From an uncultured delta proteobacterium (GTDB lineage Bacteria; Desulfobacterota; Binatia; DP-6), in assembly GCA_963815115.1 (NCBI GenBank), contig CAWFFN010000009.1:512001-576000 (forward strand): a DNA stretch of 64,000 nucleotides, written 5' to 3'. Position numbers and translations under genes: made by a program. Every line of letters begins with the position of its first letter. Positions within the stretch are counted from its first letter, which is position 1. This document shows positions 2,841 to 23,404 of this stretch, piece after piece. The notes below the pieces were generated by a model, which was not told where the DNA came from, made no database searches, and saw nothing but the letters and a program-made list of their open reading frames with translations.

Positions 2841-3100
2841 GTCGTCAGCATACCACGGCGGCGTGCGCCTCGGGCAGCGGGGGTGCACGATCCCGCCCAG
2901 GCTGGGAACGGGCCGCCGACGGGCGTGCTCGGGTCGCCGTCGACGATCTCGGAGACGGGCCCGGCCCGGCGTCGCGTCACGGCAGCGCAGGCCCGGCGTC
3001 TTCCCCTCCCCCGCCGTCCCGGGGCAGAGTACTTGACGGGCGACTCCATAGAGGCGTAGTGCGGGATCGGTCTGGTCAGATAGCAAGGAAGGGGGACCTC

Positions 3101-4273
3101 ATGAGAGTCTTTGCTGCGCTGACACTCGGGCTGGGGCTGGCCGCGGCGAGCGAGGCGGCCGTCACCCACTACCTCCACAGGGGCGCGTCACCCGTGCCCA
3201 TACCCGGGGGCAGCTCCGTCTTCTTCCTCGACGGGACGCCGCCTGCGGGCAGTACCGCGGTCGCCGAGAAGATCCAGGTGAGCAAGAAGACGCGAATCGC
3301 CTTCCCCGACTTCATCGCCGGGCCGTTCGGCGGCGGCACCGTCCTCGGGGCTCAGCTCGGAGCGCTCGTGCATCTGTCGGCAAACCTCCAGATGTCGCAG
3401 TGCGCCAGCGTCACCGCGCAGATTCTCGCCGTCGATCCGACGGGCGCCGTGAAGGTCGCCGGCAGTCTGCTCCTCGCCGGCGCGACGATCCCCCAGGGCT
3501 CGGGCGACGGCACGACGGGCTTCGCGCCCCTGACGTTCGGCGGCCCCGCCCGCTGCGCGTTCCTCGACGGCATCCCCGTCGAGGAGGGCGGATCGGTGGG
3601 CCTGCGCCTGCTCGTGTCCAACCTCTGCAAGGCGAATCGCGCCGTCTCGCTGGTCTACGACGCCGTCGGGGCGCCGTCGGCGATCAGCTTCGATGTGCTC
3701 GGGCTGAGCCCGGAGGAGATCCTGGAGCGGCGGCTCGAGTGCCAGAAGGATTGTGCCCCCGACAAGATCAAGGCGGCGAGCAAGAAGATCAGCGACATCG
3801 CCAAGTGCTTCGCCAAGGCGGTCAAGGACGGTGTCGATCCGGACTGCTTCTTTAAGGCGGAGATCAAGTTCGTGACGGCGTTCGACAAGGCCGAGGAGAA
3901 GCGCGACTGCGTGACCGTTGGCGACGCGGGCGCCGTCGAAGGCAACGTCGATGCCGCCGTGGGCGCGTTCGTCGCGGCGCTCGCTCCTGCCATGCTGCCG
4001 GAGGAGAGCCAGAAGTGCGCGGTCGCGAAGATCGGCCTCGCGGCCAAGAAGGCGACCGCGAAGCTCGCCTGTCAATCGAAGGCGGTGAAGAAGGCCCTGC
4101 CGGTCGACGTCGAGTGTCTCACCAAGGCGGAGGAGAGGTTCGCGATCGCCTACCAGAAGCTCGACGGCAAGGGGGGCTGTGTCACCACCGGCGATGCGCC
4201 GGGCGTCGAGGCCATCATCGACGGGCTGGTCGACGCGCTCGTGACGATGCTCGCCCCCCTGACTCCGCCCTGA
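3101..4273 (+). CDS. Secreted protein with N-terminal beta domain and two Cys/Lys-rich helical repeats
   Basis: Signal peptide MRVFAALTLGLGLAAASEA. Two ~85-aa repeats of the form C..KA.K.....C..KAE..F..A..K...K..CVT.GDA..VE...D..V.A.V..LAP. Confidence 0.75.
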   Translation: MRVFAALTLGLGLAAASEAAVTHYLHRGASPVPIPGGSSVFFLDGTPPAGSTAVAEKIQVSKKTRIAFPDFIAGPFGGGTVLGAQLGALVHLSANLQMSQCASVTAQILAVDPTGAVKVAGSLLLAGATIPQGSGDGTTGFAPLTFGGPARCAFLDGIPVEEGGSVGLRLLVSNLCKANRAVSLVYDAVGAPSAISFDVLGLSPEEILERRLECQKDCAPDKIKAASKKISDIAKCFAKAVKDGVDPDCFFKAEIKFVTAFDKAEEKRDCVTVGDAGAVEGNVDAAVGAFVAALAPAMLPEESQKCAVAKIGLAAKKATAKLACQSKAVKKALPVDVECLTKAEERFAIAYQKLDGKGGCVTTGDAPGVEAIIDGLVDALVTMLAPLTPP

Positions 4274-4290
4274 GCGGTTCGCCGGCGCCC

Positions 4291-5370
4291 TCACACCATC
4301 GCGACGACGTTCTTGACGCCCCGCGGCGGGCCCTGCAGGAGCTCGCCTTGGGCGTCGAGCGGGAAACGTCCCGTGATGAGGTTCCGCGCGACGCCCGGCC
4401 AGCGTGACTCGAACACCGCCAGATCGCCGATCGCCGCCTCGAAGGCCTCGCGGCCGGCGTTGATGGTGCCGAGGACGACCTGATTGCGTAGCACGAGGTT
4501 GCGCATCATCGCCGCGGCGTCGATCTCGAGCGGCCTGCGACCGCCGGGAAGCCCGGTGAGCACGAGCATGCCGTTGTGGCCGAGGGCCTCGAGCGCCTGG
4601 AACACGACCGGGGGCGCGCCGGTCGCCTCGTAGAGCACGTCGATGCCGCCGAGGCGCGTCCCGAGCTGCGCGAGCGGCGCGCGCTCCGAGCTCACGTAGC
4701 GCACCCCGGCGGACGCGAGCAGGGCGGCCTGCGGGCTCGATTCGGGCTCCAGCGACCACACGTGGGTCTCGAAGCCGGCCGCGGCGAGGACGAGCGCGCC
4801 GAGGATCCCGACTGCTCCCGCGCCTGCCACCACCGCCGTACCGCCGCCGCGTCCGGTCCGTTCCCGGACCCCACGGATCTGACCGAGCGCCTTTTCTGCG
4901 ATCGTGAGCGGTTCGACCAGCACGGCGACGTCGCGCAGCGCCGGCGCCACGCGATGGAGATAGCGTGCGTCCTCGACCACCTCCTCGGCCAGGAAGCCGT
5001 GGCGCTCCTTGATGCCATGCTCGACGAAGTCGCCGGTGGTGCAGAGGTCCTGCCGCGCGCTGCGGCACGGGACGCAGGCGTCGTGCGGGCAGGGGCGCCG
5101 CACCGCGGGAACGACGAGGTCGCCGCGCGCGAGCTGCGTCACGGCGGGTCCGACCTCGACCACCTCGGCGAGACACTCGTGCCCGAGGACCAGATGATCG
5201 GAGCCCGCGGGAGGGGTACCGAACTCGAAGCGGCAGATCTCCCGGTCGGTCCCGCAGACGCCGACCTCGAGGACGCGGAGCCGGACGTCGGCGGGCGAGG
5301 AGAGACGGGGCGGGTCGTGCTCCACGAGGCGCACCGCGCGCTCGCGAGGAAAGACGGCGAGGGCCCTCAT
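4291..5370 (-). CDS. Zn-dependent glucose 1-dehydrogenase (MDR family)
   Basis: Motifs VGVCGTDREI, LVLGHE, VRRPC...C..C......C, GAGAVG and NQVVLGTINA. ATGA overlap with the upstream gene. Confidence 0.85.
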   Translation of the reverse strand: MRALAVFPRERAVRLVEHDPPRLSSPADVRLRVLEVGVCGTDREICRFEFGTPPAGSDHLVLGHECLAEVVEVGPAVTQLARGDLVVPAVRRPCPHDACVPCRSARQDLCTTGDFVEHGIKERHGFLAEEVVEDARYLHRVAPALRDVAVLVEPLTIAEKALGQIRGVRERTGRGGGTAVVAGAGAVGILGALVLAAAGFETHVWSLEPESSPQAALLASAGVRYVSSERAPLAQLGTRLGGIDVLYEATGAPPVVFQALEALGHNGMLVLTGLPGGRRPLEIDAAAMMRNLVLRNQVVLGTINAGREAFEAAIGDLAVFESRWPGVARNLITGRFPLDAQGELLQGPPRGVKNVVAMV

Positions 5371-7679
5371 CGACTGCGTCCCAGCCACCACGTGAAGAGC
5401 GCCTTCACCCTCGGCGTGAGCCGCGTCCGGTTGTAAGCGTCGGCGGCCTTCTTCATCACCTCGGCCTGCGTCGGGTAGGGATGGATCGTGCTCCCGATCG
5501 CCCCGAGGCCGATCCCGGCCGTCATCGCCAGGGTGAGCTCCGATATCAGGTCGCCCGCGTGGGTGGCGACCAGCGTGGCCCCGACGATCCTGTCGCTGCC
5601 CGCGCGCAGGTGAACGCGCAGGAAGCCGTCGTCCTCGCCGTCGAGGACCGCGCGGTCGACCTCGCGGAGCGGGACCGTGAGGGTGGTGACGGCGATGCCG
5701 CGCCCGGCGGCATCGTGCTCGGACAGCCCGACGTGCGCGACCTCCGGCGTGGTGTAGGTGCACCAGGGCACGTGGAGGGCGCTCGCCTTCTTCCGCCCGA
5801 AGGCGCCGAAGAGCGCGTTCTGCACGACGATGCGCGCGAGAGCGTCCGCGGTGTGGGTGAACTGGAAGCGCGATGCCACGTCGCCGGCGGCGTAGATGCG
5901 CGGGTTCGTGGTCCGCAGGTGATCGTCCACGACCACTCCCGCGGCCTCGTGGCGTACCCCCGCGGCCTCGAGCCCGAGCCCTTCCAGGTTGGGCGCGCGG
6001 CCGACGCCGACGAGGATGCGATCTCCGACCGCCTCCGACGTGGCGCCGCCCACGCCGTAGCGGACGACGACCTCCGTGCCGCGACGCTCGGCGCCCAGCA
6101 CGCGGGCTCCGTTCACCAGCCGCACGCCGTCGCGCTCCATGCGCCGCTCGACCACCGCCGCCGCATCCGCGTCCTCGCGCGGCAGCGCGTGCGGGGCGTC
6201 GTGCACGACCGTCACCTCGGCCCCGAAGCTCCGGAAGACCTGGGCCATCTCGCAGCCGATCGGACCGGCGCCGATGACGACCAGACGCCGCGGGAGCTCC
6301 GTCAGCCAGAAGACGGTCTCGTTGGTGAGGTAGCCGGTCTCCTCCAGGCCGGGGATGGGCGGAGCGGCGGCTCGCGCGCCCGTCGTGATCACGGCGCGCG
6401 CGAACTCGAGCGTTCTTCCGTCGACCTCGAGCGTGGTCGGGCTCGTGAAACGCCCGCCCCCGATGTAGACGTCGACCCCCAGCTTGGTGAAGCGTTGCAC
6501 GCCGTCGTTGGGCGCGAGCTCGGCGCGCAGGCGGCGCATGCGGGCCATCACGGCGGGGAAGTCGACCTCGACGGAGCCGACCCGGACGCCGAGCTCGCCC
6601 GCCTGGCGCGCGCTCGCGGCCGCGCGGGCGGCGGCGATGAGCGCCTTCGACGGCACGCAGCCGACGTTCAGACAGTCCCCACCGAGGAGGTGACGCTCGA
6701 CGAGCGCGACCTTCGCGCCGAGTCCCGCCGCCCCGGCGGCGGAGACCAGCCCCGCGGTTCCTCCGCCGACCGCCACCAGGTTGTAGCGCCCGCTCGGACG
6801 CGGATTCTGCCGGCCGCCGGGGTGCACGTGCGACAGCAGCGTCCGGTTGAACTCGTCGTCGGGAAGGACGAGCGGCCCGGGCGCGTGGCCGGCGACCGGC
6901 GCCGGGTGCGCTTCCTCGGCGCTGCGTTCGACCGTGGCCTCGTCCAGGGCACGCCGGGCGATGCGCGTGACGACGACCGTGACCGCCACCGTGGCGGCGA
7001 AGCCGAGGAAGGTGAGCGCCTGCTTCGCCGTTCCGCCCGAGGGCGCACCCGAGGCGAGCTGGCTCACGCTCGTGATCAGCGATCCCAGGTAGACGTACAT
7101 GACCGTGCCCGGCACCATGCCGACGAGCGAGCCGATCACGTAGTCGCGGAAGGTCACCCGGGTGAGGCCGTACGCGTAGTTGAGGAGATTGAAGGGGAAG
7201 GCAGGCGAGAGTCGCGTGAGCAGCACGATCTTCAGCCCTTCGCGGCCCACCGCGCGATCGATGGCGGCGAAACGGGCGTTGCCGGCCACGCGCGCCGCGA
7301 TCCGGTCGCGAGCCAGCGTGCGCCCGAGGAGGAACGCGACCGCGGCGCCGAGATTGGCGGACACCCAGACCAGCGGGACGCCCACGGCGACGCCGTAGGC
7401 GAAGCCGGCGCCGAGCGTGAGGATGAGTCCCGGCAGGAGGAGGATGCACGCGATGACGTAGGCGGCAACGAAGACCGCCATGCCGGCGAGCCCGGCGCCC
7501 CGGATCCAGGCGACGAAGCCCAGCAGCCAGTCGTTGACGGGGAGGAGCTTCAGGGCGCCGAGCACCGCGACCAGGACGAGAGCGAGCAGGACGAGGCGGC
7601 CCGTGCCGCCGCCCTGCGGCCGCGCCTCGGGGGATGCGAGCGTCGCTGGTCCGGGCGGGGCGCTCATGGACTCCGTCAT
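5367..7679 (-). CDS. TVP38/TMEM64 (DedA/VTT) membrane domain fused to a class I pyridine nucleotide-disulfide oxidoreductase (MerA/Lpd-like)
   Basis: N-terminal TM region with LLTRLSPAFPFNLLNYAYG, followed by GGGTAG, GGDCLNVGCVPSK, GAGPIGCE and HPYPT. Start is 7679 or 7667. Confidence 0.88.
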   Translation of the reverse strand: MTESMSAPPGPATLASPEARPQGGGTGRLVLLALVLVAVLGALKLLPVNDWLLGFVAWIRGAGLAGMAVFVAAYVIACILLLPGLILTLGAGFAYGVAVGVPLVWVSANLGAAVAFLLGRTLARDRIAARVAGNARFAAIDRAVGREGLKIVLLTRLSPAFPFNLLNYAYGLTRVTFRDYVIGSLVGMVPGTVMYVYLGSLITSVSQLASGAPSGGTAKQALTFLGFAATVAVTVVVTRIARRALDEATVERSAEEAHPAPVAGHAPGPLVLPDDEFNRTLLSHVHPGGRQNPRPSGRYNLVAVGGGTAGLVSAAGAAGLGAKVALVERHLLGGDCLNVGCVPSKALIAAARAAASARQAGELGVRVGSVEVDFPAVMARMRRLRAELAPNDGVQRFTKLGVDVYIGGGRFTSPTTLEVDGRTLEFARAVITTGARAAAPPIPGLEETGYLTNETVFWLTELPRRLVVIGAGPIGCEMAQVFRSFGAEVTVVHDAPHALPREDADAAAVVERRMERDGVRLVNGARVLGAERRGTEVVVRYGVGGATSEAVGDRILVGVGRAPNLEGLGLEAAGVRHEAAGVVVDDHLRTTNPRIYAAGDVASRFQFTHTADALARIVVQNALFGAFGRKKASALHVPWCTYTTPEVAHVGLSEHDAAGRGIAVTTLTVPLREVDRAVLDGEDDGFLRVHLRAGSDRIVGATLVATHAGDLISELTLAMTAGIGLGAIGSTIHPYPTQAEVMKKAADAYNRTRLTPRVKALFTWWLGRSR

Positions 7680-7810
7680 CGCCGTCTTCGATGACCACGG
7701 CGGATCGTCGTTCGAGGACATAGCACGCGGCGGCGCGTGCCTGCCAAGCGCTGGTCCCGTGCGCGTCGAGCGCGCGCCGCCCGGGCGCGGCGCGCTCCCG
7801 CGGCAGTTTC

Positions 7811-8530
7811 TCAGGCCTCCGGGGCGTCTCGCCGGACGGGGGTGACCCGGTTCCTCGCGATGTCGAGGTAGACCTCCTCGTAGTCCACCCGATCCGCTAT
7901 CAGACCGTGGAACGCGTTCAGCATCGCGGAGGCGACGGCGAGGTTGGTGAAGAGGAGCTGCGGCGCGCCCGCCGTCGCCAGCCGGCCGCAGCCGGGGGTG
8001 CTCGGGACGACTGCCGGAGCGTCGGCGATCTCCGGATGGTGGCGGGTGAGCGAGCTGGACAGCCAGACGCCGTCCGCGCGCCTGACGACCTGCACGTTGC
8101 CGTAGGTCCCGCTCCGCCCGGCCTCGGGCTCGACGCCGTCGTTTCCGCCCGACAGCAGCACGACGTCGCGCAGGCGCTCCACCGCCTCGGAGACCACCCG
8201 GCGGCTGGCGTGATTGTCGACGGCCAGGAACACGATCTGTCCCTCCCGGATGATCGTCCCCACGTTCTCCGGCGTCACGTACTCCGGCACGGGCTCGATC
8301 GTGACGACCTCGCCGAATGCCTGAGCCAGCTCGCGCGCCATGGCGACGGCCTTGTTCTCGAGGCTCACGAACCGCATTCGGCTCCGGTTGCTCTCCTCGA
8401 ACGCGTCGCCGTCGACGAGCGTCAGGTGGGAGAGCCGTCGCTCCGCGTGCAGGTAGTGGCAGAGGTGGCGCGCGACATGGCCGCCGATTCCGCCGCAACC
8501 GACGACGGTGATCTCAGTAGGACCACGCAT
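7811..8530 (-). CDS. ThiF/E1-like adenylyltransferase (PRTRC-ThiF-like, no Zn-binding CxxC)
   Basis: Motifs VVGCGGIG, VDGDAFEESNRSR, NKA, AVDN..SR and a Cys in PGCG...PQLLFTN. Start is 8530 or 8545. Confidence 0.85.
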   Translation of the reverse strand: MRGPTEITVVGCGGIGGHVARHLCHYLHAERRLSHLTLVDGDAFEESNRSRMRFVSLENKAVAMARELAQAFGEVVTIEPVPEYVTPENVGTIIREGQIVFLAVDNHASRRVVSEAVERLRDVVLLSGGNDGVEPEAGRSGTYGNVQVVRRADGVWLSSSLTRHHPEIADAPAVVPSTPGCGRLATAGAPQLLFTNLAVASAMLNAFHGLIADRVDYEEVYLDIARNRVTPVRRDAPEA

Positions 8531-9251
8531 ATCCGTGCTTGCCATCGGTCCGGCGCTCCTCGACGACCTGGATCCGCTCGAGCCATTCGGGTGGCCATGC
8601 GCGGCTCGCGTGCGCCGGCTCGAGCACCTGCTCCGGGGGGACGGGGAAGCGCGTCCCCGCGACGACGAACGCGGCGTCGAACTCGGGCAACGTCGAATCG
8701 ACGTAGCCCACCGTCACGTGCAGCCCGGTCTCGAAGAGCTCGTCGTGCTCGTCCACCAGGCTGTGGCGCGGGCTGAGCTCGGCGTGGCTGTGCATCGTGC
8801 CCAGCTTCCGCCATTCGGGCCCCGGGCGTGCGCACGGCCCGTAGCTCAGGCGCAGATCGGCGCGAAACCGCCCGTGCTCCACCCGACCGCGAATGGTCTG
8901 GGGCGGCGCTTCGACGCGATAGCGAGCCCGGCGGCCGTCGGCGGCGGGTGCGTAGAACATGAACAGCACGGCCTCGCCCTCCCAGCGATCGTAGACGGAG
9001 CGGAAGAAGCCCAGCGCCGTCTCGACGAGACTGCGGGGCAACCGGCGAGGGAGCCGGAGGTCGAGGCGTGCCTCGTGGGGAAGCAGGCCGGGAACGCCGC
9101 CGTCCACCCGGACCGTCGCAGCATACAGCTCCGTGCGCCGGTCGAGAAAGAGACCATTGCCCGCGATCACGTAGGAGGTGTCGGCGTCGGACGGTGTGAA
9201 CGCGTCGTCCTTCAGCAGCACGGGAAACATCGGCGCTGCGAGCATCGTCAC
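8514..9251 (-). CDS. JAB/JAMM metallopeptidase (PRTRC protein A-like)
   Basis: YVIAGNGLF N-terminus, EGEA Glu, and LGTMHSH....RHS..D..DE....LHVTVG. GTGA overlap with the upstream gene. Confidence 0.85.
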   Translation of the reverse strand: MTMLAAPMFPVLLKDDAFTPSDADTSYVIAGNGLFLDRRTELYAATVRVDGGVPGLLPHEARLDLRLPRRLPRSLVETALGFFRSVYDRWEGEAVLFMFYAPAADGRRARYRVEAPPQTIRGRVEHGRFRADLRLSYGPCARPGPEWRKLGTMHSHAELSPRHSLVDEHDELFETGLHVTVGYVDSTLPEFDAAFVVAGTRFPVPPEQVLEPAHASRAWPPEWLERIQVVEERRTDGKHGYAWSY

Positions 9252-10387
9252 GGCTCCAGCTGCATGAGCGTCACCAGCTGCTCGACACGCTCGACGGGAT
9301 GCCAGGGGGCCACGCGGTCCAGCATGTACTCGAGCGTGCCACCGACGGTGCGGGACGCCCGGCGCCAGTGCACCTGGAGCGCGAAGTAGGGATCGGCGCA
9401 GGTCGCCTCTTCCCACGCGTCCGCGCTCGCAAGTCGCGCGTCGATCGATGCGGCCGACTCCCAGTACGAGTTGCCCTCGTGCATCTCGGCCGAGCGGTTG
9501 AAGGCCGCGTGCCAGAAGTGATCGGTCACGGCCTTCAGGCGAGCAGACGACGACAGCCGACGCAGGCTCCGGTTGCTCAGCGCCACCAGACACACCCAGC
9601 TCTCCTGGTCCTCGTAGGCCGGCGCCTGCGCGCAGTTGAGCAGACAGGTGAAGGAGAGGTGGTCGTCGAGCGACTCGATGGGGGTGCTCCGGAAGAAGGC
9701 CTGCTGCATGCCGGTGAGCATCCCGTCGCGAAGGACCAGGAACAGCACCACCCAGGGGAACGACAGCCGGCGCTGGCGGTAGCGCGCTTCGGCCCCGAAC
9801 GCGTCCGGCGAATCGTCGGCGATCCACCGGACCACGCGAGGGCCCGGAGGCATCTCGATGACTGCCCCGAGCACCGTCCCCCCGGCGCGCTCGGCCATGA
9901 GCCGGACGTTCGGCGGGTGGACGCGCCACGTCGCCGGCCCGCTGCCCGTCGCGACGACCCGGTCGAGCAGATGGCGGACCGGCGTGGAGCCCATCATGCG
10001 ACCATCGCGGCGCCACACGGCGCTCGTGTCGGCGATCTCGATCGCCGACCGGGCGGCCCGCACGGAAGCCTGCGCGCCGGCGCCCTTCTCGCCGGCGTAC
10101 TTGACGAACTCGAGATGCTCGCCCACGGCGAGCACGTGGTCGTCCGGCACCTGACGGCCGCCTACGAGTGCCACGGCGGCGGGATGGATGCCGAAGAGTG
10201 CTGCCGCGATCGCCCGGGCCGCTCCGACGCAGCGGCCGGCGAGATCCAGGTCCTGCACGTCGGCGCCCGCGATCACGCGGACGCGTGCGGCGGCGGCGGT
10301 TCCGGCGACCGCGGGATCGGTGGCGACCGGGTCGGAGGGTGGCGCCTCGAGCGGGAGCGAAGGACGCTGCTGTTGCTGCTGTGTCAT
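9248..10387 (-). CDS. Ubiquitin-like domain (ending GEKG) fused to a prokaryotic E2-like domain (Prok-E2_D/PRTRC-B-like)
   Basis: Residues ~35-102 show a beta-grasp pattern ending L..GE.LEFVKYAGEKG. The C-terminal part has LSFPWVVLF, LLNC, WVCL and FW.AAFN. ATGA overlap with the ATPase gene. Confidence 0.72.
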   Translation of the reverse strand: MTQQQQQRPSLPLEAPPSDPVATDPAVAGTAAAARVRVIAGADVQDLDLAGRCVGAARAIAAALFGIHPAAVALVGGRQVPDDHVLAVGEHLEFVKYAGEKGAGAQASVRAARSAIEIADTSAVWRRDGRMMGSTPVRHLLDRVVATGSGPATWRVHPPNVRLMAERAGGTVLGAVIEMPPGPRVVRWIADDSPDAFGAEARYRQRRLSFPWVVLFLVLRDGMLTGMQQAFFRSTPIESLDDHLSFTCLLNCAQAPAYEDQESWVCLVALSNRSLRRLSSSARLKAVTDHFWHAAFNRSAEMHEGNSYWESAASIDARLASADAWEEATCADPYFALQVHWRRASRTVGGTLEYMLDRVAPWHPVERVEQLVTLMQLEP

Positions 10388-12048
10388 CTCGGAGTTCCTC
10401 CTCGTGCCGTGTGTTCGACCTTGGTCAGGGCCTGGTCCTCGGGCAGGCGACCGGCGAGAGCGCTGCGGACGTTGTCGCGGGTGATGGAGCGACAGCGCTC
10501 GACGAAGTACGCCGTCGTGGCGGCGGTGAGGTCGTCGAGGGTGAGCGGACCGGGCTCCTCGCGGCCGGCGCGGAGATCGCGCTGCGCGAGCCGAGCGAGA
10601 AGCGGCCGCACGACGCCGTCCGCGATCGCGGCCGCCGTTGCGAGGTCGCGCGCTCCGAACGACAGCATGCGGCCGTCGGCGAGCTGCACGCGAAGCAGCT
10701 CGGCGAGCGTGCCGTTGGGCGCGAACACGAGGTCGCTCACGGCTGCCCCGAACTCGCGTGACAGGCGATCGTGAGCCGGCTTCCGGGCGTCCTCCGGGGA
10801 CGCGAGCGGGATCCGGGTGAGGCACTTCGCCACCAGCGTCGCCACCTGCGCCGCGTCCAGGGTGTGCGGCAGCTGCACGATCGGCAGGCGGCCGTCGCGC
10901 GTGAGCGCCGTGTCGAGGTAGCGGTCGGCGAGGTTGGAGATGCCGATCAGGCGGCCCTGTGAACGCGTGAGCAGCGCGAGCAGCGTGTCGAGGACGTCGA
11001 GGTAGCCGCCGTGCAGCATGAAGCCCTGGCTGCGATCGAGGGCGATGGCCTCGAGCTCGTCGATGACGAGGAGGGGCCTCACCCCGGACTCCTCCCAGGC
11101 GCGGTCGAGGGTCATGAAGTCGGCGCGGAGCCGGGCCGCGCCCTCGCCCACCCACTTGGAGAGAAACGACGAAGCGGTCCGCACCAGCGCCGTACCACCG
11201 CGAGCCCGGATGCGATCGACGAAGTAGTCGGCGAGCAGGCTCTTGCCACAGCCCGGCGGCCCGCACAGGACGGCGCCGGCAGCAGCGCGCTCGGCCTCGC
11301 CCAGCAGCGCCGCGTACGCCGGCGATGGCGGGGTCAGGAACAGTCGCTCGAGGCGCTCGATGACGTCGTCGAGGCCGACGATGTCCTCGCGCCGGACCGG
11401 ACGAGGCACGCCCATCTCCGGTGCCGCGGGCCGCTGCGCCGGTCCGAGCCGCCGCGTGACCAGCACCACGTTGCCAAGCGCAAGCCCGCCGTAGCCGAGG
11501 ACGCGGTCCTCGAAGGCGAGCGTGTCCAGATCGACGCTGTCGGCGACGACGCCGAGCAGGCGCGCCTCCTCCTGGCCGGCTTCGCGGAGCGGACGCACCA
11601 GCACGTGGCGGCCGTCGAGACGCTCGCACACGGCATAGGCGGAGCCCCCGATCAGGTACTCCCCCGCCCCGACGACCGTCTGGGCCCCGGCATCGGTGTA
11701 GACGATCTGGCCGATCCCGAGCGTCATGTCGGCGGGCCGCACCAGGACGCGCTCGGTGGGGCCGATCTGCAGGCACACCCGGCCGTTCTGCACCGCCGTC
11801 ACGATGCCACGCAGCTGCGCGCCTCCCCCGAGCATGCGCTCGAGCTGCTCGCGCGTGCCGCTGAGCTCTCGTCGAGCCGCCGCCGTGCGCGTCGCGGCAC
11901 GCAGGAGGCCGTCCGCAGCGGGGCCGAACGCGTCGAAGGCGATGCGGCGCGCCTCGGCCTGGCGCTCCGGCGGAACGTCGGGATCACACAGGACGTCGAG
12001 CAATCCGTCGATGTCGGACGGCGACTCCGTCTTGGCGCGTGACCTCAT
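10384..12048 (-). CDS. AAA+ ATPase, divergent ARC/Mpa (proteasome-associated ATPase) type
   Basis: Coiled coil (RRELSGTREQLERML) and two OB-like segments, then Walker A GPPGCGKS, pore loop FLSKWVGE, Walker B LLVIDELE, GISN and LDTALTRDGRL. Also an ARC-like insert LLRVQLADGRMLSFGARDL. Confidence 0.8.
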   Translation of the reverse strand: MRSRAKTESPSDIDGLLDVLCDPDVPPERQAEARRIAFDAFGPAADGLLRAATRTAAARRELSGTREQLERMLGGGAQLRGIVTAVQNGRVCLQIGPTERVLVRPADMTLGIGQIVYTDAGAQTVVGAGEYLIGGSAYAVCERLDGRHVLVRPLREAGQEEARLLGVVADSVDLDTLAFEDRVLGYGGLALGNVVLVTRRLGPAQRPAAPEMGVPRPVRREDIVGLDDVIERLERLFLTPPSPAYAALLGEAERAAAGAVLCGPPGCGKSLLADYFVDRIRARGGTALVRTASSFLSKWVGEGAARLRADFMTLDRAWEESGVRPLLVIDELEAIALDRSQGFMLHGGYLDVLDTLLALLTRSQGRLIGISNLADRYLDTALTRDGRLPIVQLPHTLDAAQVATLVAKCLTRIPLASPEDARKPAHDRLSREFGAAVSDLVFAPNGTLAELLRVQLADGRMLSFGARDLATAAAIADGVVRPLLARLAQRDLRAGREEPGPLTLDDLTAATTAYFVERCRSITRDNVRSALAGRLPEDQALTKVEHTARGGTPR

Positions 12049-13049
12049 GTGTTGCTCCTCGGCTCTCGGTCGAGCACCCAGTAACCCGGTTCCTCCTCGA
12101 CGGTGCCGTCGGGCGTGTATCCGTAGAGCCTGACGACGCGACCGTCGGGGTAGAGGGACACGATCACGCTCGCGGCGAACGGGTCCGTGAAGGTCGTGAG
12201 ATGCGTCACGACGTCGGCGATCGAGATGATCGGCGTCTCGCCGGCCTGGTGGAGGTGCGTGTGCACCGAGCACGTGACGCTCGGCACGTCGGGGGGAGGC
12301 GCGGCCAGGAATTCGGCCCATGATCCCGCGGGAGAGACCACGGTCGAGTCGGTCGCCTCGCCGGCCCGTATCGGGACGAGCCGGTGGAGAATGCGCACGA
12401 ACGTCCGCCGCATGCGATCGAAGCCCACGCGCGCGTGCATCCTGCCGGAGGTCTCGACCCCGCGCGCCCGGCTGGCACGCTCGAGCTCGCCGAAGGCCTC
12501 CACGACGTCGGCGGACAGGAAGGTCGCCATCCACTCCCGGGATGGATTGCCCTCGGCCGTGGCACCGGCCGCGAGCGCGTCGACCGACATCGCCGGGAGC
12601 GCGGGGATGGAGACCCGCAGCGGTGGATCGGCGCACTCGGCAGCATGCAGTGAATAGGCGATCCGGGCGGTCGCTGCGCCGGTGCCGCGTGACGCACCCG
12701 TGACGTGCAACGCGCGCGCGCTCACGAAGGGTGCGAAGACGTCGCGTGGAAACTCGCCGCGGGACACCACCCGCCCGCGATCGTCGCGCAGCTCGACGAT
12801 GCAGGAGTCGAGGCAGAGGGTGCTCCCGTGTCGATCACGGAGCCGGCCGGGGCGGAACCACGCATGAGCCGATTCCGGGATCCCGAGCAGACCGTCGCGC
12901 ACGCCCACGAGCGCGGCCGTGCGCACGAGCCACTCGCAGTGGGGAAGCTCGAGCACGACCACGTCGGCCGAGCTGCCCACCACGAGCGGGAGCGACATGG
13001 CAATGCCGTCCGGCGCGGCGCCGGCGAGCGGCATCGGATGCGCGCTCAT
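12045..13049 (-). CDS. JAB/JAMM-domain protein with N-terminal extension
   Basis: GVETSG Glu and CSVHTHL......ISIADV.TH (HxH-S-D JAMM motif). Start is 13049 or 13070. Confidence 0.75.
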   Translation of the reverse strand: MSAHPMPLAGAAPDGIAMSLPLVVGSSADVVVLELPHCEWLVRTAALVGVRDGLLGIPESAHAWFRPGRLRDRHGSTLCLDSCIVELRDDRGRVVSRGEFPRDVFAPFVSARALHVTGASRGTGAATARIAYSLHAAECADPPLRVSIPALPAMSVDALAAGATAEGNPSREWMATFLSADVVEAFGELERASRARGVETSGRMHARVGFDRMRRTFVRILHRLVPIRAGEATDSTVVSPAGSWAEFLAAPPPDVPSVTCSVHTHLHQAGETPIISIADVVTHLTTFTDPFAASVIVSLYPDGRVVRLYGYTPDGTVEEEPGYWVLDREPRSNT

Positions 13050-13050
13050 C

Positions 13051-13320
13051 TCAAAGGAGCGCGTTGGCATACTCCGGGCCGATGACGACCCGTCCGCCGG
13101 GACGGACGGCGGTGCCGACCTTCGCCATCCTGGGCAGCTCGTGGCCCTCGTGGAGCGCCGCGTAGCGCAGCGGCTTGTTCGACGCCACGTCGCGGGTGGG
13201 GAGCCGGAGCTTCGGGACCGCGGCGTCGGTCAGGCGCTCGACTGACCAGTCCTCCGGCACCGTGTCGTCGAACGACACGGCCTCGTCGTGACGTGTGAGA
13301 TGAATTGCGATTGCCTGCAT
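13051..13320 (-). CDS. Ubiquitin-like (YukD/EsaB-like beta-grasp) protein, 89 aa
   Basis: Pattern VPEDWSVERL....V.KLRLP..D....LRY.....G.EL....KVG.AV..G.RVVIGP. GGAGG RBS; lies between the E2 and JAB genes. Confidence 0.72.
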   Translation of the reverse strand: MQAIAIHLTRHDEAVSFDDTVPEDWSVERLTDAAVPKLRLPTRDVASNKPLRYAALHEGHELPRMAKVGTAVRPGGRVVIGPEYANALL

Positions 13321-13324
13321 GGTT

Positions 13325-13702
13325 TCACCCTCCCTGTTCGGTGTCGGTCACTGCGTCGCCGCCGGCGACGCGAAGATCCATCAGCTCGAGATAGCTGCGT
13401 GCGACGTCCTCGTCGCCGAGCGCGCGCAATCCGCGGGCGAGCTCGTGCACCTCGGCGGCCAGTGCGTCGCGCCCGTCGGGGGCGCACCGCTCGACGAGCG
13501 CGCCCGGGCCGTCGTGCCAGCCACCGGCGCAGCGCCGGAGATCCGCCGAGGCGGCGCAAAGGAATGCCCTCCTCGCGCGATCGACGACGAGGCCGCCCGG
13601 TCGTCCGAGCCTCAGGAAGAGGGGCGCCGTGATGGACGGAAGCGTCGTCGCCAGCACGCCGGCCGTGACGTCGACGATGGGAAGCGGGATCGAAGCGGTC
13701 AT
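13325..13702 (-). CDS. Hypothetical protein (125 aa) within the Ub-like operon
   Basis: ATGA overlap with the E2 stop; ends 4 bp before the Ubl start. Confidence 0.6.
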   Translation of the reverse strand: MTASIPLPIVDVTAGVLATTLPSITAPLFLRLGRPGGLVVDRARRAFLCAASADLRRCAGGWHDGPGALVERCAPDGRDALAAEVHELARGLRALGDEDVARSYLELMDLRVAGGDAVTDTEQGG

Positions 13703-14211
13703 CGTGGGTCCGCGGGGTAGAGGGGGCGGTGATCGGCGGGTCCGTCCGGCAGGTGGCTGCGGACGTAGTCGGCGGCGACCGGGTCGACGCAGTGATCGAG
13801 GCGCCGGTTGCGGATCCGGAGGTTGTCGTAGAGCAGCTCGGCGAGCCGGTGCGGACGAACGCCCCGAACGTCGAGGCACAGGCGCTTCTCGCCGTAGTTC
13901 GGCGCGACGAAGTCGAACGGGGTCAGCACGATCGGCACGAGCGCCGCCTCGCGGTCGAACGGCCAGAGCGGCGGACATACCACCACGACCTGGAAGTCGC
14001 GCGTGGCGATGGTCGGGCCGCCATCGGTTGCGACCAGGGTCCGCACGTCACGGTAGTGCAGCAGGACGCCGTCGGCCATGCCCTGGACCTCGAGACGCCC
14101 CTGGGTTCGCCGCGCGTCGTCGTACAGGACGAGGAGCATGTTGGTGAGCGCGCGGCGGCGGATCGCGAGGCGCCCTGCCTCGAGCCTCTCGGTCTCCGGC
14201 CCGAACGTCAT
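13699..14211 (-). CDS. Ubiquitin-conjugating E2 (UBC-fold) protein
   Basis: CPPLWPF..P...FVAPN......CL (HPN-like motif plus catalytic Cys) and C-terminal A..YV....P.D.RPL. GGAGG RBS and ATGA overlap. Confidence 0.75.
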   Translation of the reverse strand: MTFGPETERLEAGRLAIRRRALTNMLLVLYDDARRTQGRLEVQGMADGVLLHYRDVRTLVATDGGPTIATRDFQVVVVCPPLWPFDREAALVPIVLTPFDFVAPNYGEKRLCLDVRGVRPHRLAELLYDNLRIRNRRLDHCVDPVAADYVRSHLPDGPADHRPLYPADPR

Positions 14212-15308
14212 GGGACCTCCGACCATCTGAAGCGCGCGCGCAGCCGCACGACGCCCTTTCGGCCGACGGCGAGGATCTCCTCGCCGGGCCCGCTCCCGAA
14301 CTGTCGCAGCGTGATCGCTGCGACCTCCGGAGCGAGAAGCTCACGAGCCCCGACCTGGGAGCGCGTCGCCAGCGGTCGGCGGGGCTCCGAACAGGAGCAG
14401 CCACGCTCGATGGCTGCGGCCGGCAGCAGCCGGAGGGGCGCGGGCGACACGAGGCGGCAGCGCAGGCATTCCATGCCGAGCATGGGGATGCTCCGCCGTC
14501 CGAGCAGCACGGTCGCATCGTCGCCGGCCTCGGCGATGAGCCGCTCGACGATCGCGCCGACGGTCAGGTCGTCGATCCCGCCGTCGAGTTCGATCACGCG
14601 CGACTCGTCGGGGTGATGTGCGACGGGACAGCCGGGTACCGGGTGCGGTGGCATGCGGATCACGTACTCCGGTCCAGCGGAATCACGCTGGTGACGGCCG
14701 CCGGCCACGGATCGGTCGCCCTCGAGCCAGCGCAGGAGCAGCCGCACGCCGGCGTCGGCTGCTGCCGCGGCGGCTTCGGCCGATGCACGCGGCGCCGTCG
14801 TCTCGTCGCAGCTCGTCGCCGACGCCAGGCGATCCGCGTGCCGCTCCGTCTCCCCCCACAGGCACACGGGGCACGAGGCGTTCCGGCCCGTCGCGAAACA
14901 CCGCACCTGGTATCCGCCGCGAGTCGACTGGTTCCCGCAGGTGAGAACCAGGAGCAGCGGCCCGGTCACGGCGCCGCCCCAGATTGCCTCGACGACGTCG
15001 CGGATCGCGGTGGGATTGTCGAGCGCCAGGACGACGGCGTCGAGCGCGCGCACCAGCCCGGGCCGCACCGTGAAGCGTACGTCGCCGTGGAGAGCACGAG
15101 CGATCGCCCCCCGCGCACGCCGCCGATCCGCGGTGACGACGGCCTTCGGCCGGAAGCAGTCGGCGGCGTCGAAGAGCGACGTGGACAGGTTCTCGGGCAG
15201 GACCTGCTGAGCATCGGCGACGGTGACGGCGATGGACGCCGGCAGCAGCCCGGCGACGCGCGAGCCGATGGCGCCGGCGCCGAAGAGGCCCACCTCCGCG
15301 CCGCTCAC
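14208..15308 (-). CDS. E1/ThiF-family activating enzyme with Zn sites and C-terminal Zn-ribbon extension
   Basis: Motifs LFGAGAIG, D...V.PENL, PKA, ALDN, CPVC, TSC (putative catalytic Cys), GCPVAH and CLRC...CSC. GTGA overlap. Confidence 0.82.
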   Translation of the reverse strand: MSGAEVGLFGAGAIGSRVAGLLPASIAVTVADAQQVLPENLSTSLFDAADCFRPKAVVTADRRRARGAIARALHGDVRFTVRPGLVRALDAVVLALDNPTAIRDVVEAIWGGAVTGPLLLVLTCGNQSTRGGYQVRCFATGRNASCPVCLWGETERHADRLASATSCDETTAPRASAEAAAAAADAGVRLLLRWLEGDRSVAGGRHQRDSAGPEYVIRMPPHPVPGCPVAHHPDESRVIELDGGIDDLTVGAIVERLIAEAGDDATVLLGRRSIPMLGMECLRCRLVSPAPLRLLPAAAIERGCSCSEPRRPLATRSQVGARELLAPEVAAITLRQFGSGPGEEILAVGRKGVVRLRARFRWSEVP

Positions 15309-15742
15309 GGTGACGCCTCCGGGGTCTCGTCCTGGACGGGCGCAGCGCATCCGGAGCAGGTGATGGCGAGCGTGGCGCAGTCCGTGTGGGCCGGCGCCTC
15401 GCACCGGCACGCCACGATCGGCTCCCCGGCCGCGATCGCGCCGAAGCACACCGCGCACTCGAGCCCGGCCGGCGCCGTCCGCCACTCGCGTGCGGACTGC
15501 CACCGCACCTCCACGCGCCACTCGCCGGCGCGCACCAGCGCCCCGGCACCACGGTCGACCACCCCGAGCCCTCCCAGCATCGGCCGACCATCGATCCGTG
15601 CGCCGGACGGCGGCGCCAGCACGACGGCATCGCCGCCTGTCATGCGGACGAAGCGCAGAACCGGGACCTGGCCGCTGCGACCGACCTCGACGATGTCTCG
15701 CAGGACGAGGGACGCAGCCGGCGTGACGATGACGTGCGGCAT
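15305..15742 (-). CDS. Degenerate FHA-like domain plus prokaryotic RING finger (putative E3)
   Basis: C-terminal CAVC-x12-CRC-x4-H-x2-C-x6-CSGC (C4HC3). N-terminal VGR...RIDGRP...G beta-rich region. GGAGG RBS. Confidence 0.72.
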   Translation of the reverse strand: MPHVIVTPAASLVLRDIVEVGRSGQVPVLRFVRMTGGDAVVLAPPSGARIDGRPMLGGLGVVDRGAGALVRAGEWRVEVRWQSAREWRTAPAGLECAVCFGAIAAGEPIVACRCEAPAHTDCATLAITCSGCAAPVQDETPEASP

Positions 15743-15852: not shown

Positions 15853-16365
15853 CTAGGTGAGGAGCTCGACGAGCCTGCGGGCTCCGCGCCGGGAGCACAG
15901 CACCCAGTCGATCGTCGGCGCGGGCCCCGTGAGCTCGCCCGTGCGCATCCCGCACATCCGCTCGTCCACGTTCGGCACGAGCACGTTGGTGAGCGACACC
16001 AGGATGCCGCGCTGAGCCAGCGCGAACCCGCTCCCGAGGTGGTCCGAGAGCGCCTTCAGCGACGGGCTGTTGGCGCGGAGCGTGAGCCCCTTCACCTCGA
16101 GGAGCCCGAAGATGCGTGACCATGCGTAGTAGCGGTCGTCGCGCGGCGGGACCAGAGCGATCCACGCGGCCTGGACGTATCGGTGCAGCCATTTGCCGGA
16201 GCCCAGGATCGTCACGTCGCCCGTGACCGGCAGCAGCAGTCGCTTGCCCCGGAACGGGCCGGCGAGAGGTGCGGCGAGGATCGTGACGCGTGCCGGAACG
16301 AACCCCTCGCAAAACCTTGCGCCGCAGTGCTCCCAGCGGCCGGGACGGCTACAATCCGTTGACAT
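15853..16365 (-). CDS. Stand-alone LytTR-like DNA-binding protein
   Basis: SLKALSDHLGSGFALAQRGILVSLTNV resembles the LytTR SL..L...L...F.R.HRS.IVN pattern, and the C-terminal LCSRRGARRLVELL resembles VSR....L.E.L. Confidence 0.55.
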   Translation of the reverse strand: MSTDCSRPGRWEHCGARFCEGFVPARVTILAAPLAGPFRGKRLLLPVTGDVTILGSGKWLHRYVQAAWIALVPPRDDRYYAWSRIFGLLEVKGLTLRANSPSLKALSDHLGSGFALAQRGILVSLTNVLVPNVDERMCGMRTGELTGPAPTIDWVLCSRRGARRLVELLT

Positions 16366-16670: not shown

Positions 16671-17675
16671 CTACTCGCCGACGAGCGCCCAGCTCACCGG
16701 CACACGATCGTCGAAGCCGGGATCATCGGAGCCAGACTCCGTCAACGGACGCGAGTAGATTGCCGTGAATGCTCGCATCATGCCGCGCTTGCGCTTCTCT
16801 GGGTAGAGCGCGCTCGCGGACGAGTCATCGCACGCGAGCATCGTGCCCGCGAGCGTCCCGCAACCGCTGTGGCCCATGATCGCGATGATGATGCGGTCGT
16901 CGCCCTCGGATGGACGGCTGTCCGGATTGAAGCGGTAGGCGAAGATGAGCCCGCAGTCCTCGCCCACGTCGCCGCGGCCGACCACGGTGCGGCGCGCGAC
17001 GAGCCTCGCCGATCCCTCCCGCAGTATACCGAGCTCGGCCGTTGCGGCTGCCTCGTCGCTGAACGACGACGCGTGCTTTCGATCCGAGCGGAAACGATAC
17101 GGAAATCCGTCGCGCCGGCTGCGACTCCGCGGCGGCACGCCGAATCCCCGGCAGACCGCGTCCTCGGCGATGGGATTCACGATGGGCGATCCGAGGATGA
17201 GATGGCAGCCGTCGGCGTAGAGCTTCTCGACCCGTGCGGGGTCGTGCAGGGCGTCCATGTGCTCCTGGAAGGTGAACACCACGCCCCGGCCGGGGGGACG
17301 ATTCAGGTACTCGTAGACGTGGAACAGCGCTCGCACGTCCCAGGTGCCGATGCCCTGGCGATCGAGGGGGATCCCGACCGGCTTCCCCTTCACGGACTCG
17401 AGCGACGTCGACCCCACGTGCACGGTCAGCTTCCCGCTGCGGCGGATCGGGTACCAGATGTCGGCAGGGACCGCCTGCAGGAGCTCGTGCAGCTCGATCC
17501 TGAGTGCGGCGCAGAGCTTTCCGAGCGTTTCCGGTTTCACGGCGCCCCAGGTGCCATCGCACAACGCGCTGATCCGCTCGGTGTCGACCGTGCTGAGTTC
17601 GGAGAGCTCCTTCTGCGTCAGCCGGCGCGCGCGCATGATTTCGTCGAGCCGACACACGATGCGCTTCGGTACCAT
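16671..17675 (-). CDS. Cro/C1-type HTH (YozG/HTH_26-like) regulator with C-terminal alpha/beta domain
   Basis: RLDEIMRARRLTQKELSE.....ISAL........TLGKLCAALRI...ELL. C-terminal ILGSPIVNP...DCGLI..RFNP...IIAIMGHSGCGT. Confidence 0.8.
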   Translation of the reverse strand: MVPKRIVCRLDEIMRARRLTQKELSELSTVDTERISALCDGTWGAVKPETLGKLCAALRIELHELLQAVPADIWYPIRRSGKLTVHVGSTSLESVKGKPVGIPLDRQGIGTWDVRALFHVYEYLNRPPGRGVVFTFQEHMDALHDPARVEKLYADGCHLILGSPIVNPIAEDAVCRGFGVPPRSRSRRDGFPYRFRSDRKHASSFSDEAAATAELGILREGSARLVARRTVVGRGDVGEDCGLIFAYRFNPDSRPSEGDDRIIIAIMGHSGCGTLAGTMLACDDSSASALYPEKRKRGMMRAFTAIYSRPLTESGSDDPGFDDRVPVSWALVGE

Positions 17676-22324: not shown

Positions 22325-23404
22325 TGCTCCGCCGTCGAGATGCGCTCAAGCATTCGACGATGCGACCGGATGATCGCCGCGGCAGGTTTCGTCCAGGCGA
22401 ACGGCGTCGGGTTCTTCTTCCAGGCGCGCATGTAGGCGTTGAGATGATCGCGCAGGGCCTTCGCCGAGTGGAAGTCCGTCAGGCTCAGGGATTGTTTGCC
22501 GAGAATGCCGAAGAACCCTTCCACTTGATTGAGCCACGACGCGCTCGTCGGGGTGTAGTGGAAGCGAACCAAGGGGGGGCGTATCGAGCCAGGCGCGCAC
22601 GGCGGGGGTGCGGTGGGACGACGAATTGTCGAGAATGACGTGCAGTTCGCGGCCCGGATACGCCCGCACGACTTTCTCCATGAACGCGAGGAAGTCCGCG
22701 GCGGTGTGCCGAGCGCTGAGCCGATGCGTAACGTCGCCGGTCGCGACTTCGAGGGCGGCGTACAGATCGACGACCCCATGGCGCTTGTAGTCGTGGGTGT
22801 GCCGCACGGCGCGGCCGGAGCGCAGCGGGAGCGGCCGTTGCGTCCGCTCCAACGCTTGGATCGACGTCTTCTCGTCCACGCTGAGGACCACGGCGTGCTC
22901 GGGGGGATGGAGGTAGAGCCCCACGATGTCGTGCACCTTCGCGACAAAGTCCGGGTCGCGGCTCACCTTGTACGTGCGCACGTGATGGGGCTTGAGCCCG
23001 TGGCGCCGCAGGAGATCGGACACGCAGCCACTCGTCAGGCCGACTTCCTTCGCGAGCAGGCGCGTCGTCCAGCGGCTGCGGCCCGCCGGCGGGGGCGACA
23101 TAGCCAGCTCGACCACGCGCTCCACCGTCGCGGCGGGGACGGCGTGATCCGTGCGCCCGCCCTTCGGTCGCGTGGCGAGGCCGGCGACCCCGCCGTCGAG
23201 AAACCGGCGTCGAATCCGCGACACAGCCTCGGCCGACAGCTGCAGGCGGCGGGCGATGTCGGCGCCCGCCACGCCGTCGGCACTCCACAGCACCACATGC
23301 GCGCGCCGGATCACCTGCGCCGAGTCAGTCGCCCGCGCCACGAGGGTCTCCAACTCGCGCCGCTGCTTCGCCGTAAGCCCCACCACCATCCGCCGTCGTC
23401 TCAT
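22321..23404 (-). pseudogene. IS630 transposase with a frameshift in a C7 run (22573-22579)
   Basis: HTH, SVDEK, HDYKRHG and ILDN in one frame; FHYTPTSASWLNQVE in the other. Confidence 0.85.

Follow-up and report, generated by a model that had tools for sequence, protein, structure and literature searches.

A conserved ten-gene bacterial cassette combining two putative ubiquitin-like pathways with a Mpa-like ATPase

We analysed a window of 64,000 nucleotides (nt) from an uncultured delta proteobacterium (Desulfobacterota; Binatia; DP-6; assembly GCA_963815115.1, contig CAWFFN010000009.1, positions 512,001 to 576,000), in which positions 7811-15742 hold ten tightly packed genes (g1-g10), all read from the minus strand. 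Two different sets of genes for putative ubiquitin-like (Ubl) conjugation, module 1 (g1-g6) and module 2 (g8-g10), lie on either side of g7, which encodes a Mpa/ARC-like AAA+ ATPase. The ten genes recur together, in the same order, in metagenome contigs. From this anatomy we consider it somewhat probable that they are a single functional unit, spread horizontally, and that this unit is a tag-and-unfold system independent of a proteasome, in which two orthogonal Ubl pathways would work with a Mpa-type hexameric unfoldase.

Conservation of the ten-gene unit

An earlier prediction for this stretch, made from the sequence alone (hereafter the original prediction), had described ten co-directional genes, six of them joined to the next by ATGA or GTGA overlaps. 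Strand reading and translation recovered all of these features on the minus strand. The overlaps are GTGA at 15305-15308, ATGA at 14208-14211 and 13699-13702, ATGA at 12045-12048 and 10384-10387, and GTGA at 9248-9251. Six 4-base overlaps imply translational coupling, and those at 12045-12048 and 10384-10387 couple the ATPase gene g7 to module 1 and module 2, respectively. The remaining junctions are gaps of 4 nt (g4/g5) and 1 nt (g5/g6) and an overlap of 17 nt (g9/g10), the last of which assumes that g10 starts at the ATG at 8530, the listing of open reading frames (ORFs) giving 8545. The start codon of g2 is a GTG overlapping the stop codon of g1. As the G+C content of the window is ~70 %, long ORFs are expected by chance (82 ORFs of at least 60 amino acids (aa) are listed between 5 and 19 kb), and the gene set was therefore judged real by its conservation. 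A scan for promoters and terminators returned no promoter-like site and one terminator-like site, not above shuffled sequence. The listing of sequencing runs contained no RNA run with this DNA, and only DNA runs with small shares of it.

Using an alignment of 35 members of the g7 family, we retrieved 16 metagenome loci, 14 of them orthologous, and mapped them by tblastn with all ten products. Three contigs (L014, L017 and L018) extend 5 kb or more to either side, and in these g1-g10 are all present in the same order and orientation, at 30-62 % identity. On the 11 shorter orthologous contigs only genes adjacent in the cassette occur, again in this order, and a contig from a genome of the same family (G020) carries g4-g10 up to its end. 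Both modules were found in every orthologous locus with sufficient sequence. The original prediction had named an arrangement not conserved in other genomes as grounds for its own refutation; the order was kept in each of the three long contigs. The flanks are a different matter. Nothing beyond the ten genes was common to the window and these loci, or to the loci among themselves, and Pfam searches of 129 flank ORFs returned unrelated families (subtilase, major facilitator superfamily, amidohydrolase, sigma-54 activator, sugar-binding, DJ-1, PIN and others). Since only the ten genes are shared and the flanks are unrelated, the conserved unit comprises exactly ten genes, set in varied contexts.

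A divergent, eleven-gene version of the cassette lies at positions 2773-12435 of locus L006 (G013:C73), in a genome from a different genus of the same family (G013). Only its module 2 was visible to tblastn, and the rest was identified by Pfam, NCBIfam and profile searches of the DNA upstream. The order starts with a helix-turn-helix (HTH) protein, a Cys/His-rich finger protein, a ThiF-family E1 (93 bits), an E2 with an FHPN...C motif and an uncharacterised protein of 267 aa, and ends with a tag, a JAB, the ATPase, the module 2 tag (Ubl2), an E2-like protein, a second JAB and a second E1. The module 1 tag ends in AG, matches Rad60-SLD with 29.2 bits against 23.8 and is recovered by the g5 profile at E 2e-4; the module 1 JAB matches Prok-JAB with 21 bits. 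The ATPase matches Prot_ATP_ID_OB_N and Prot_ATP_ID_OB_C above cut-off and pup_AAA with 231 bits, below the cut-off of 504.75, and is by these domain matches a canonical proteasomal-type ATPase. Ubl2 is here a separate gene ending in GEKGAGM, the module 2 JAB matches PRTRC_A over 19-187 of 192 (E 1.7e-9) and the module 2 E1 matches PRTRC_ThiF (E 1e-9). That the layout is kept although the sequences of module 1 have diverged almost completely argues more strongly than anything else for a functional union of these genes. Downstream of this cassette we observed a Uma2 endonuclease, an insertion sequence integrase and a PIN protein.

The families are small, and that of the ATPase has sharp limits. 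The ATPase forms 63 clusters at E <=1e-104 among 5.8 billion protein clusters, the next match being generic AAA at 6.5e-12; g8 likewise forms 63 clusters, none of which has a Pfam domain or an informative name, and the module 1 E2 forms 76. Within the host's surroundings, g8 was found in 3 of 61 relatives and the cassette in 3 of 25 genomes of the order and in none of four congeners, while an ATPase at E <=1e-25 occurs in one of the 401 genomes of a phylum sample, namely that of the window. A search of genome contigs with the single ATPase as query returned only an unrelated archaeal AAA protein. This rare and patchy distribution suits an accessory, laterally moving unit, without thereby proving a role in defence.

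The ATPase, the two modules and the host

The gene between the modules, g7 (10384-12048, minus strand, as are all genes of the cassette), encodes a protein of 554 aa. Its AlphaFold2 model (predicted local distance difference test, pLDDT, 85.9) consists of a long helix (residues 27-75), two OB-like barrels (79-203) and a classic AAA module. The original prediction had placed an ARC/Mpa-like ATPase here, and Mpa indeed ranked first in both structure comparisons. The top Foldseek rows were all Mycobacterium tuberculosis Mpa (E 8.9e-27 to 5.6e-23, ~500 columns; the best was 7px9_C with 501 columns at E 8.9e-27), with 26S Rpt subunits at ~1e-16. VIA-align gave Z 27.4 for Mpa over 444 residues (76-549 of the model, 97-589 of Mpa), Z ~22 over ~315 residues for Rpt chains and ~21 for AAA-only matches. 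Walker A (263-270), Walker B (326-333), the pore loop K298-W-V-G301, the sensor N372 and R384/R387 are invariant or nearly so in the 35 aligned members. The sequence identity to Mpa is 21-23 %, the pup_AAA model (TIGR03689) scores 39.3 bits against a cut-off of 504.75, and NCBIfam identifies g7 as classic AAA, with the PAN, Mpa, Cdc48 and FtsH models far under cut-off. The protein is of Mpa-like build and is not a Mpa orthologue. The C-termini of the family have a penultimate Tyr in 0 of 35 cases and no GQYL tail, features which we take to be the C-terminal 20S-docking tail of Mpa/ARC.

The length of the ATPase varies, 24 of the 63 clusters being only ~385-425 aa long. In many relatives (loci L013, L014, L015, L016, L021 and L022) the gene is split near residue 415-425 into two; in L014, L015, L016 and L022 the GTGA of the first ORF starts the second gene, which encodes the last ~135 aa. 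Placed on the model, the split point looks like a position inside the AAA lid region.

Module 1 begins with g1 (15305-15742, 145 aa), whose C-terminus holds a RING/PHD-type binuclear zinc finger, C96-x2-C99...C112-x-C114-x4-H119-x2-C122-x6-C129-x2-C132. All eight C4HC3 ligands are invariant in the four orthologues (30-49 % identity). The Pfam model Prok-RING_1 scores 18.2 bits, under its cut-off of 29.1, and PHD and zf-RING_2 are weak too; we regard g1 as the putative RING-type E3 of the module. For its N-terminal ~90 aa we considered an FHA-like domain, which had no support from Pfam and is a lead only. The next gene, g2 (14208-15308, 366 aa), encodes a ThiF-family E1 (E1a) with 32.2 bits for Pfam ThiF, above the cut-off of 28.1; its CxxC pairs C146/C149 and C281/C284 and also Cys 124, 167, 227 and 304 are invariant in four orthologues.

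The putative UBC-type E2, g3 (13699-14211, 170 aa), is recognised by a (H/A)PN-x6-C motif, with N105 and C112 invariant and P104 nearly so among 42 aligned family members. A profile of these 42 sequences found five matches among PDB sequences, all human UBE2T and weak (E 0.93-1.5), aligned on the HPN...C motif; a profile of six sequences found none. The nearest ESM Atlas clusters (score 0.95) carry UQ_con on 13-41 % of their members, and none of the 42 family members matches any Pfam model, UQ_con included. The adjoining g4 (13325-13702, 125 aa) is a small protein with GGWxDGPG and ARSYLEL motifs, kept in all seven loci that reach its position, and may act with the E2 as a partner or form its C-terminal extension. 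In P0176 the two are one polypeptide, of which residues 187-293 are 60 % identical to g4 (E 1e-32), and 12 of 77 E2-family matches have the combined length (255-304 aa), the fusion having been checked in P0176 alone. We also considered g4 as a Pup-like tag and rejected this, given its lack of a conserved C-terminus and the fusion with the E2 found in P0176.

The next gene encodes the tag, g5 (13051-13320, 89 aa; Ubl1). Its profile found 18 matches among 1.84 billion representatives and one match among PDB sequences (E 1.5). Two distant matches, P0219 and P0220, reach 39 and 36 bits for Pfam YukD against a cut-off of 27 and also match Rad60-SLD and ubiquitin, so that the assignment of Ubl1 as a beta-grasp tag is supported indirectly, through distant relatives. 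The 17 aligned sequences share an Asn-Ala near the C-terminus, after which 0-30 variable residues follow (Leu-Leu in the window protein), and no Gly-Gly occurs there. Two members, L017 and P0207, terminate exactly at NA, and two distant relatives exactly at AG. The last gene of the module, g6 (12045-13049, 334 aa), has a C-terminal JAMM-type metallopeptidase motif (E199, H263-x-H265, S276-x2-D279) and, in its N-terminal ~165 aa, the residues H37-C38-E39, H74, C79 and H135, all invariant in seven orthologues. The window protein and three orthologues gave no Pfam or NCBIfam match, and a profile search of PDB returned one chance row. As far as these searches reach, the eukaryote-like module 1 of the original prediction holds as to a RING-type C4HC3 ligand set, a CxxC ThiF E1, a putative E2 with HPN...Cys, a probable beta-grasp tag and a JAMM motif; the prediction had not described the sixth gene, g4, and the tag lacks Gly-Gly.

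Module 2 starts with g8 (9248-10387, 379 aa), a single ORF with the architecture of a Ubl-E2 fusion precursor. The AlphaFold2 model (pLDDT 83.7) has a beta-grasp domain (~34-102), a disordered segment (98-112) and then an alpha/beta domain of ~265 aa. Foldseek (probability 1.0) and VIA-align (Z <=8.5) aligned residues 30-102 with Caldiarchaeum ubiquitin, ubiquitin, NEDD8 and SUMO, and PDB fold searches with the whole model were filled by such beta-grasp matches, so their coverage is that of the Ubl2 domain. In 43 sequences G99-x-K101-G102 at the end of Ubl2 is invariant, as are C266 and H290 of the E2-like domain, and the linker after G-x-K-G is 0 to ~90 residues long. In the most divergent orthologue, L018 (11663-13012), this linker is longer by ~85 residues (P0122, 449 aa), with G-x-K-G kept.

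For residues 113-379, Prok-E2_D is carried by 11-22 % of the members in 23 of the 30 nearest Atlas clusters, many of them from phages, which is a lead only, and it is as a lead that the E2-D-like domain of the original prediction survives. Against BFVD the region matched uncharacterised phage proteins over 275-302 columns (E 2.9e-10 and 1.3e-8). The g8 profile found only TPR-like and other chance rows among PDB sequences, and none of 43 g8 relatives matches any PRTRC model, PRTRC_B and PRTRC_C included, at E <=1.

The product of g9 (8514-9251, 245 aa) has a PRTRC_A-like build, combining DUF2016 with a JAB/JAMM peptidase whose motif (E93, H154-x-H156, S164, D167) is invariant in seven sequences. 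Its orthologue in L018 scores 26.7 bits for DUF2016 (cut-off 24.3) and 23.3 bits for Prok-JAB (cut-off 25); Prok-JAB reaches 17-23 bits in four of five orthologues, and TIGR03735 (PRTRC_A) 14 bits against a cut-off of 101.8. The second ThiF-family E1 (E1b), g10 (7811-8530, 239 aa), scores 60.5 bits for Pfam ThiF, lacks CxxC and has a single invariant Cys, C181, in the crossover region (5 sequences). It matches NCBIfam PRTRC_ThiF (TIGR03736) over 11-242 of 245 positions (E 5e-15, 55.5 bits; cut-off 144.75). The Ubl, JAB and Zn-less ThiF foreseen for this module are borne out by the beta-grasp model, the invariant JAMM motif and an E1b without CxxC.

The host genome is 100 % complete, and its sole PF00227 match is HslV (279.9 bits). 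No 20S was found in this PF00227 search, and Pup_ligase had no match in the genome.

Upstream of g1 we considered two further ORFs. A protein of ~334 aa with an N-terminal Cro/C1-type HTH (Pfam HTH_26) is encoded at 16671-17675 (minus strand) and shows 35 % identity over 320 aa (E 2e-52) with the HTH protein that directly precedes the G013 cassette. This protein, a possible regulator of the cassette, was absent from the flanks of L014, L017 and L018 and is therefore outside the universal core. Between this gene and g1 lies an orphan ORF (g0; 15853-16365, minus strand, 170 aa), which we tried as an eleventh member and rejected: it has no homologue in any locus examined and no family match in Pfam, NCBIfam or PADLOC, and it may perhaps be no gene. 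Further upstream in the window, at a distance of 7-16 kb, are a TIR-domain and WD40-propeller protein (28701-31592, plus strand) and a DDE_3 transposase (22346-23404, minus strand), which suggest a variable, conflict-related neighbourhood.

Comparison with known systems

Bacterial operons in which Ub, E1, E2, RING and JAB genes are associated with Prok-RING were reportedly described by Burroughs, Iyer and Aravind in 2011, a paper cited in PMC10557695 and PMC7159879. Module 1 probably has the same five activities as such eukaryote-like prokaryotic Ub operons (Caldiarchaeum subterraneum, Prok-RING-associated), namely a beta-grasp tag, a ThiF-type E1 with Cys, a putative UBC-type E2 with HPN...Cys, a putative small RING-type finger and a putative JAMM peptidase. 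The C4HC3 order of ligands in g1 agrees with that reported for prokaryotic RINGs in PMC11354881. Unlike in those operons, the module 1 tag ends in Asn-Ala and a tail and not in Gly-Gly, the E2 has the extra partner g4, the JAMM protein g6 has a large N-terminal domain, and the whole module comes firmly linked with a Mpa-like ATPase and another, unrelated Ubl pathway.

Module 2 is best compared with operon type 6d, which we take to be the PRTRC cassette (NCBIfam TIGR03734-03742). It shares with it a Ub-like protein, a DUF2016-JAB and a minimal ThiF E1 that aligns end to end with PRTRC_ThiF. In Table 1 of Iyer, Burroughs & Aravind 2006 (PMC1779556), the E2-like protein of type 6d lacks the classical His and has a conserved Cys and a downstream His, to which C266 and H290 of g8 correspond; the same source gives the JAB of type 6d an extra N-terminal alpha+beta domain. 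In contrast to PRTRC, module 2 scores far under the NCBIfam cut-offs, its tag and E2 are fused, and an ATPase and a second pathway are attached. Eleven window proteins searched against NCBIfam gave no match to ParB-related or other PRTRC families.

The original prediction had called module 2 PRTRC/Bub-like. Type I Bub (6E/DUF6527), according to 10.1101/2024.11.21.623953, has an E1 and an E2 without catalytic Cys, working through oxyesters, a JAB-E1 fusion and the DUF6527 serine protease BubE, and its BubCD cleaves BubAB after a conserved Gly. Module 2 is Bub-like in that its tag is a Ubl-E2 fusion, presumably released by its own JAB after a conserved Gly. It is unlike Bub in that the g9 JAB and the g10 E1 are separate and that C181 of E1b and C266 of g8 are invariant; DUF6527 had no Pfam match among the eleven window proteins. 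By these sequence features module 2 is nearer operon type 6d/PRTRC than Bub, which corrects the original prediction.

The ATPase resembles Mpa/ARC in its coiled coil, two OB barrels and classic AAA module, with an aromatic-hydrophobic-Gly pore loop and Arg fingers, and differs in its genetic partners, which are E1, E2 and Ubl enzymes and not Pup, PafA or Dop. CBASS Cap2/Cap3 and Bil are set apart by a system-specific E1-E2 fusion and by BilD features, respectively, which PADLOC did not find in the cassette. Computational precedent for tags that route targets to unfolding or degradation exists in predicted RING/E1/E2/JAB systems (with Ubl-E2 fusions) tied to AAA+ chaperones. Kaur et al. 2020 (PMC7159879) describe FtsH-ternary conflict systems that contain Ubl tri-ligase systems, and also a Ubl system that is linked with the conjugation of Pup. 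In such AAA+-tied systems a single Ubl pathway is accompanied by vWA-MoxR, FtsH, EAD1 adaptors and caspase-like effectors, or by Pup enzymes. The cassette has none of these partners and in their place a second complete E1/E2-like/JAB/Ubl pathway.

Proposed mechanism, alternatives and significance

The proposed mechanism takes its footing from what was directly established, i.e. gene content, order and conservation, catalytic motifs and the folds of Ubl2 and the ATPase, and from precedents for JAB maturation (Bub, Bil, Caldiarchaeum), E1 to E2 to RING transfer and threading by Mpa and Rpt rings. In module 1, the JAMM peptidase g6 would trim the variable tail of Ubl1 after Asn-Ala, E1a (with Zn and Cys) would adenylate Ubl1 and hand it on to the HPN-Cys E2 paired with g4, and the RING protein g1 would direct it to target lysines. 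In module 2, the DUF2016-JAB g9 would free Ubl2 from the Ubl-E2 precursor after Lys-Gly102, as BubCD does with BubAB, and E1b (C181) would activate Ubl2 and hand it to the E2-like domain (Cys266/His290), presumably via thioesters, unlike Bub. In favour of the two processing steps, an invariant G-x-K-G stands before a linker of variable length, Ubl2 is a gene of its own in G013, and Asn-Ala stands before the variable tail of Ubl1. The coiled-coil/OB ring of the ATPase would recognise one or both tags, and its W-V-G pore loops would thread the tagged protein. As the cassette holds no protease and no 20S was found in the host, the output would be unfolding or extraction itself, or a hand-over to a host protease. 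A role in conflict or defence, or another accessory role, is suggested by the patchy distribution and is the weakest part of the reading. The original prediction had likewise proposed a tag-and-unfold pathway, with a possible function in defence or stress proteostasis.

Several points weigh against this reading. Gene order is the sole link of either tag to the ATPase, and the loci are fewer than they appear, since L014, L015, L016, L022 and the G020 contig are closely related and amount to about one lineage, not independent cases. Six of the ten proteins (g1, g3, g4, g5, g6 and g8) match no Pfam or NCBIfam model at cut-off. The E2-like fold suggested for residues 113-379 of g8 rests on the Atlas lead and on unnamed phage structures, and the assignment of g6 as a JAMM peptidase on motif and gene position, with an unusually long spacing from H-x-H to Ser. 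Adenylated tags do not usually end in Asn-Ala instead of Gly, which may point to a different chemistry. Regarding defence, the check with PADLOC that the original prediction had proposed turned out negative: the window proteins gave no system-level match, only the E1 portions of E1-E2 models matching (18.4 and 35.2 bits), with BilD at 12.7 bits and no other component. The flanks of L014, L017 and L018 consist of ordinary metabolic and regulatory genes, with the exception of one PIN-domain ORF ~3 kb downstream in L014.

Chance proximity in this genome of two modules and an ATPase that are independent systems deserves next to no credence. The order is identical in all three long contigs amid unrelated flanks, at identities which exclude a single recent clone, the deeply divergent G013 variant has the same layout, and 4-base overlaps tie the ATPase to its neighbours at both borders. 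Very improbable, too, is that one or both modules are a sulfur-carrier or cofactor-type pathway of the CysO/Mec+ type and do not conjugate proteins. The minimal, ThiF-like E1b (NCBIfam ThiF and MoeB models at E 3e-12 to 1e-9) and the presence of MoaD among the VIA-align matches of Ubl2 (1fm0_D, Z 8.1) speak for such a pathway, but both modules have E2-type domains with an invariant Cys, module 1 has a RING-type finger, Ubl2 is matched best by ubiquitin, NEDD8 and SUMO, and no conserved genes of sulfur metabolism or cofactor synthesis lie nearby.

Other explanations keep the unit together and divide the labour otherwise. The functional core might be g7-g10 (ATPase, Ubl2-E2, JAB and E1b), with module 1 as a regulatory layer that modifies the ATPase or the module 2 proteins, or with the two tags added in sequence on one target, in the way of SUMO and then ubiquitin. 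We regard this as unlikely. Ubl2 does follow directly after the ATPase with an ATGA overlap, the same adjacency is found in G013, and hhalign detected no homology between Ubl1 and Ubl2 (probability 0.2) or between the two E2-type domains (0.1), as expected for separate origins, which these values do not prove. However, every orthologous locus with sufficient sequence has both modules, the E2 (76), g8 (63) and ATPase (63) families differ little in size, and no locus with g7-g10 only was seen among those examined. Distinctly less likely still is that the ATPase serves the machinery itself, remodelling the Ubl-E2 precursor or extracting and recycling conjugates as a Cdc48-type segregase. A cassette without a protease in a host with HslV only, the lack of the penultimate Tyr docking motif in all 35 C-termini, and the short ATPases (~385-425 aa in 24 of 63 clusters) and GTGA-coupled split genes, which are unusual for docking to a proteasome, are all consistent with it. 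Against it, the features of a translocating classic AAA (pore loop, Walker motifs and Arg fingers) are invariant, and the nearest structures are the substrate-threading Mpa and Rpt rings.

A more specific form of the tag-and-unfold reading, which we regard as doubtful, is a Pup-independent ubiquitin/unfoldase counterpart with two hierarchical tags. The first tag would prime or mark the target, or else the machinery, the second, RING-dependent one would commit it, and the Mpa-type ring would read the tags with its coiled-coil/OB collar and unfold the protein without a dedicated protease, in a manner resembling SUMO, then ubiquitin, then Cdc48. Such a self-contained logic would have evolved, or been put together, in bacteria.

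The original prediction knew of no characterised system with this combination, and our literature search likewise found no paper on two E1/E2/JAB/Ubl sets around a Mpa-like ATPase. Taken singly, the parts belong to kinds predicted or studied before, namely RING/E1/E2 Ubl operons, 6d/PRTRC cassettes and Mpa-like ATPases, and it is their union that is new within the literature searched. If the parts work together, the cassette would offer several biochemical handles, namely a tag that ends in Asn-Ala, an E2 whose partner is detachable, a design related to that of Bub with thioesters in place of oxyesters, and an ATPase encoded by two genes in many relatives. It would then be a compact system in which to study the separation of, and cross-talk between, two orthogonal E1-E2 cascades. 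It would also be the clearest bacterial case of ubiquitin-type, and not Pup-type, tagging wired to an unfoldase of the proteasome family, in a host in which no proteasome core was found, and it would bear on how AAA+ rings came to recognise tags before there was a eukaryotic 26S proteasome.

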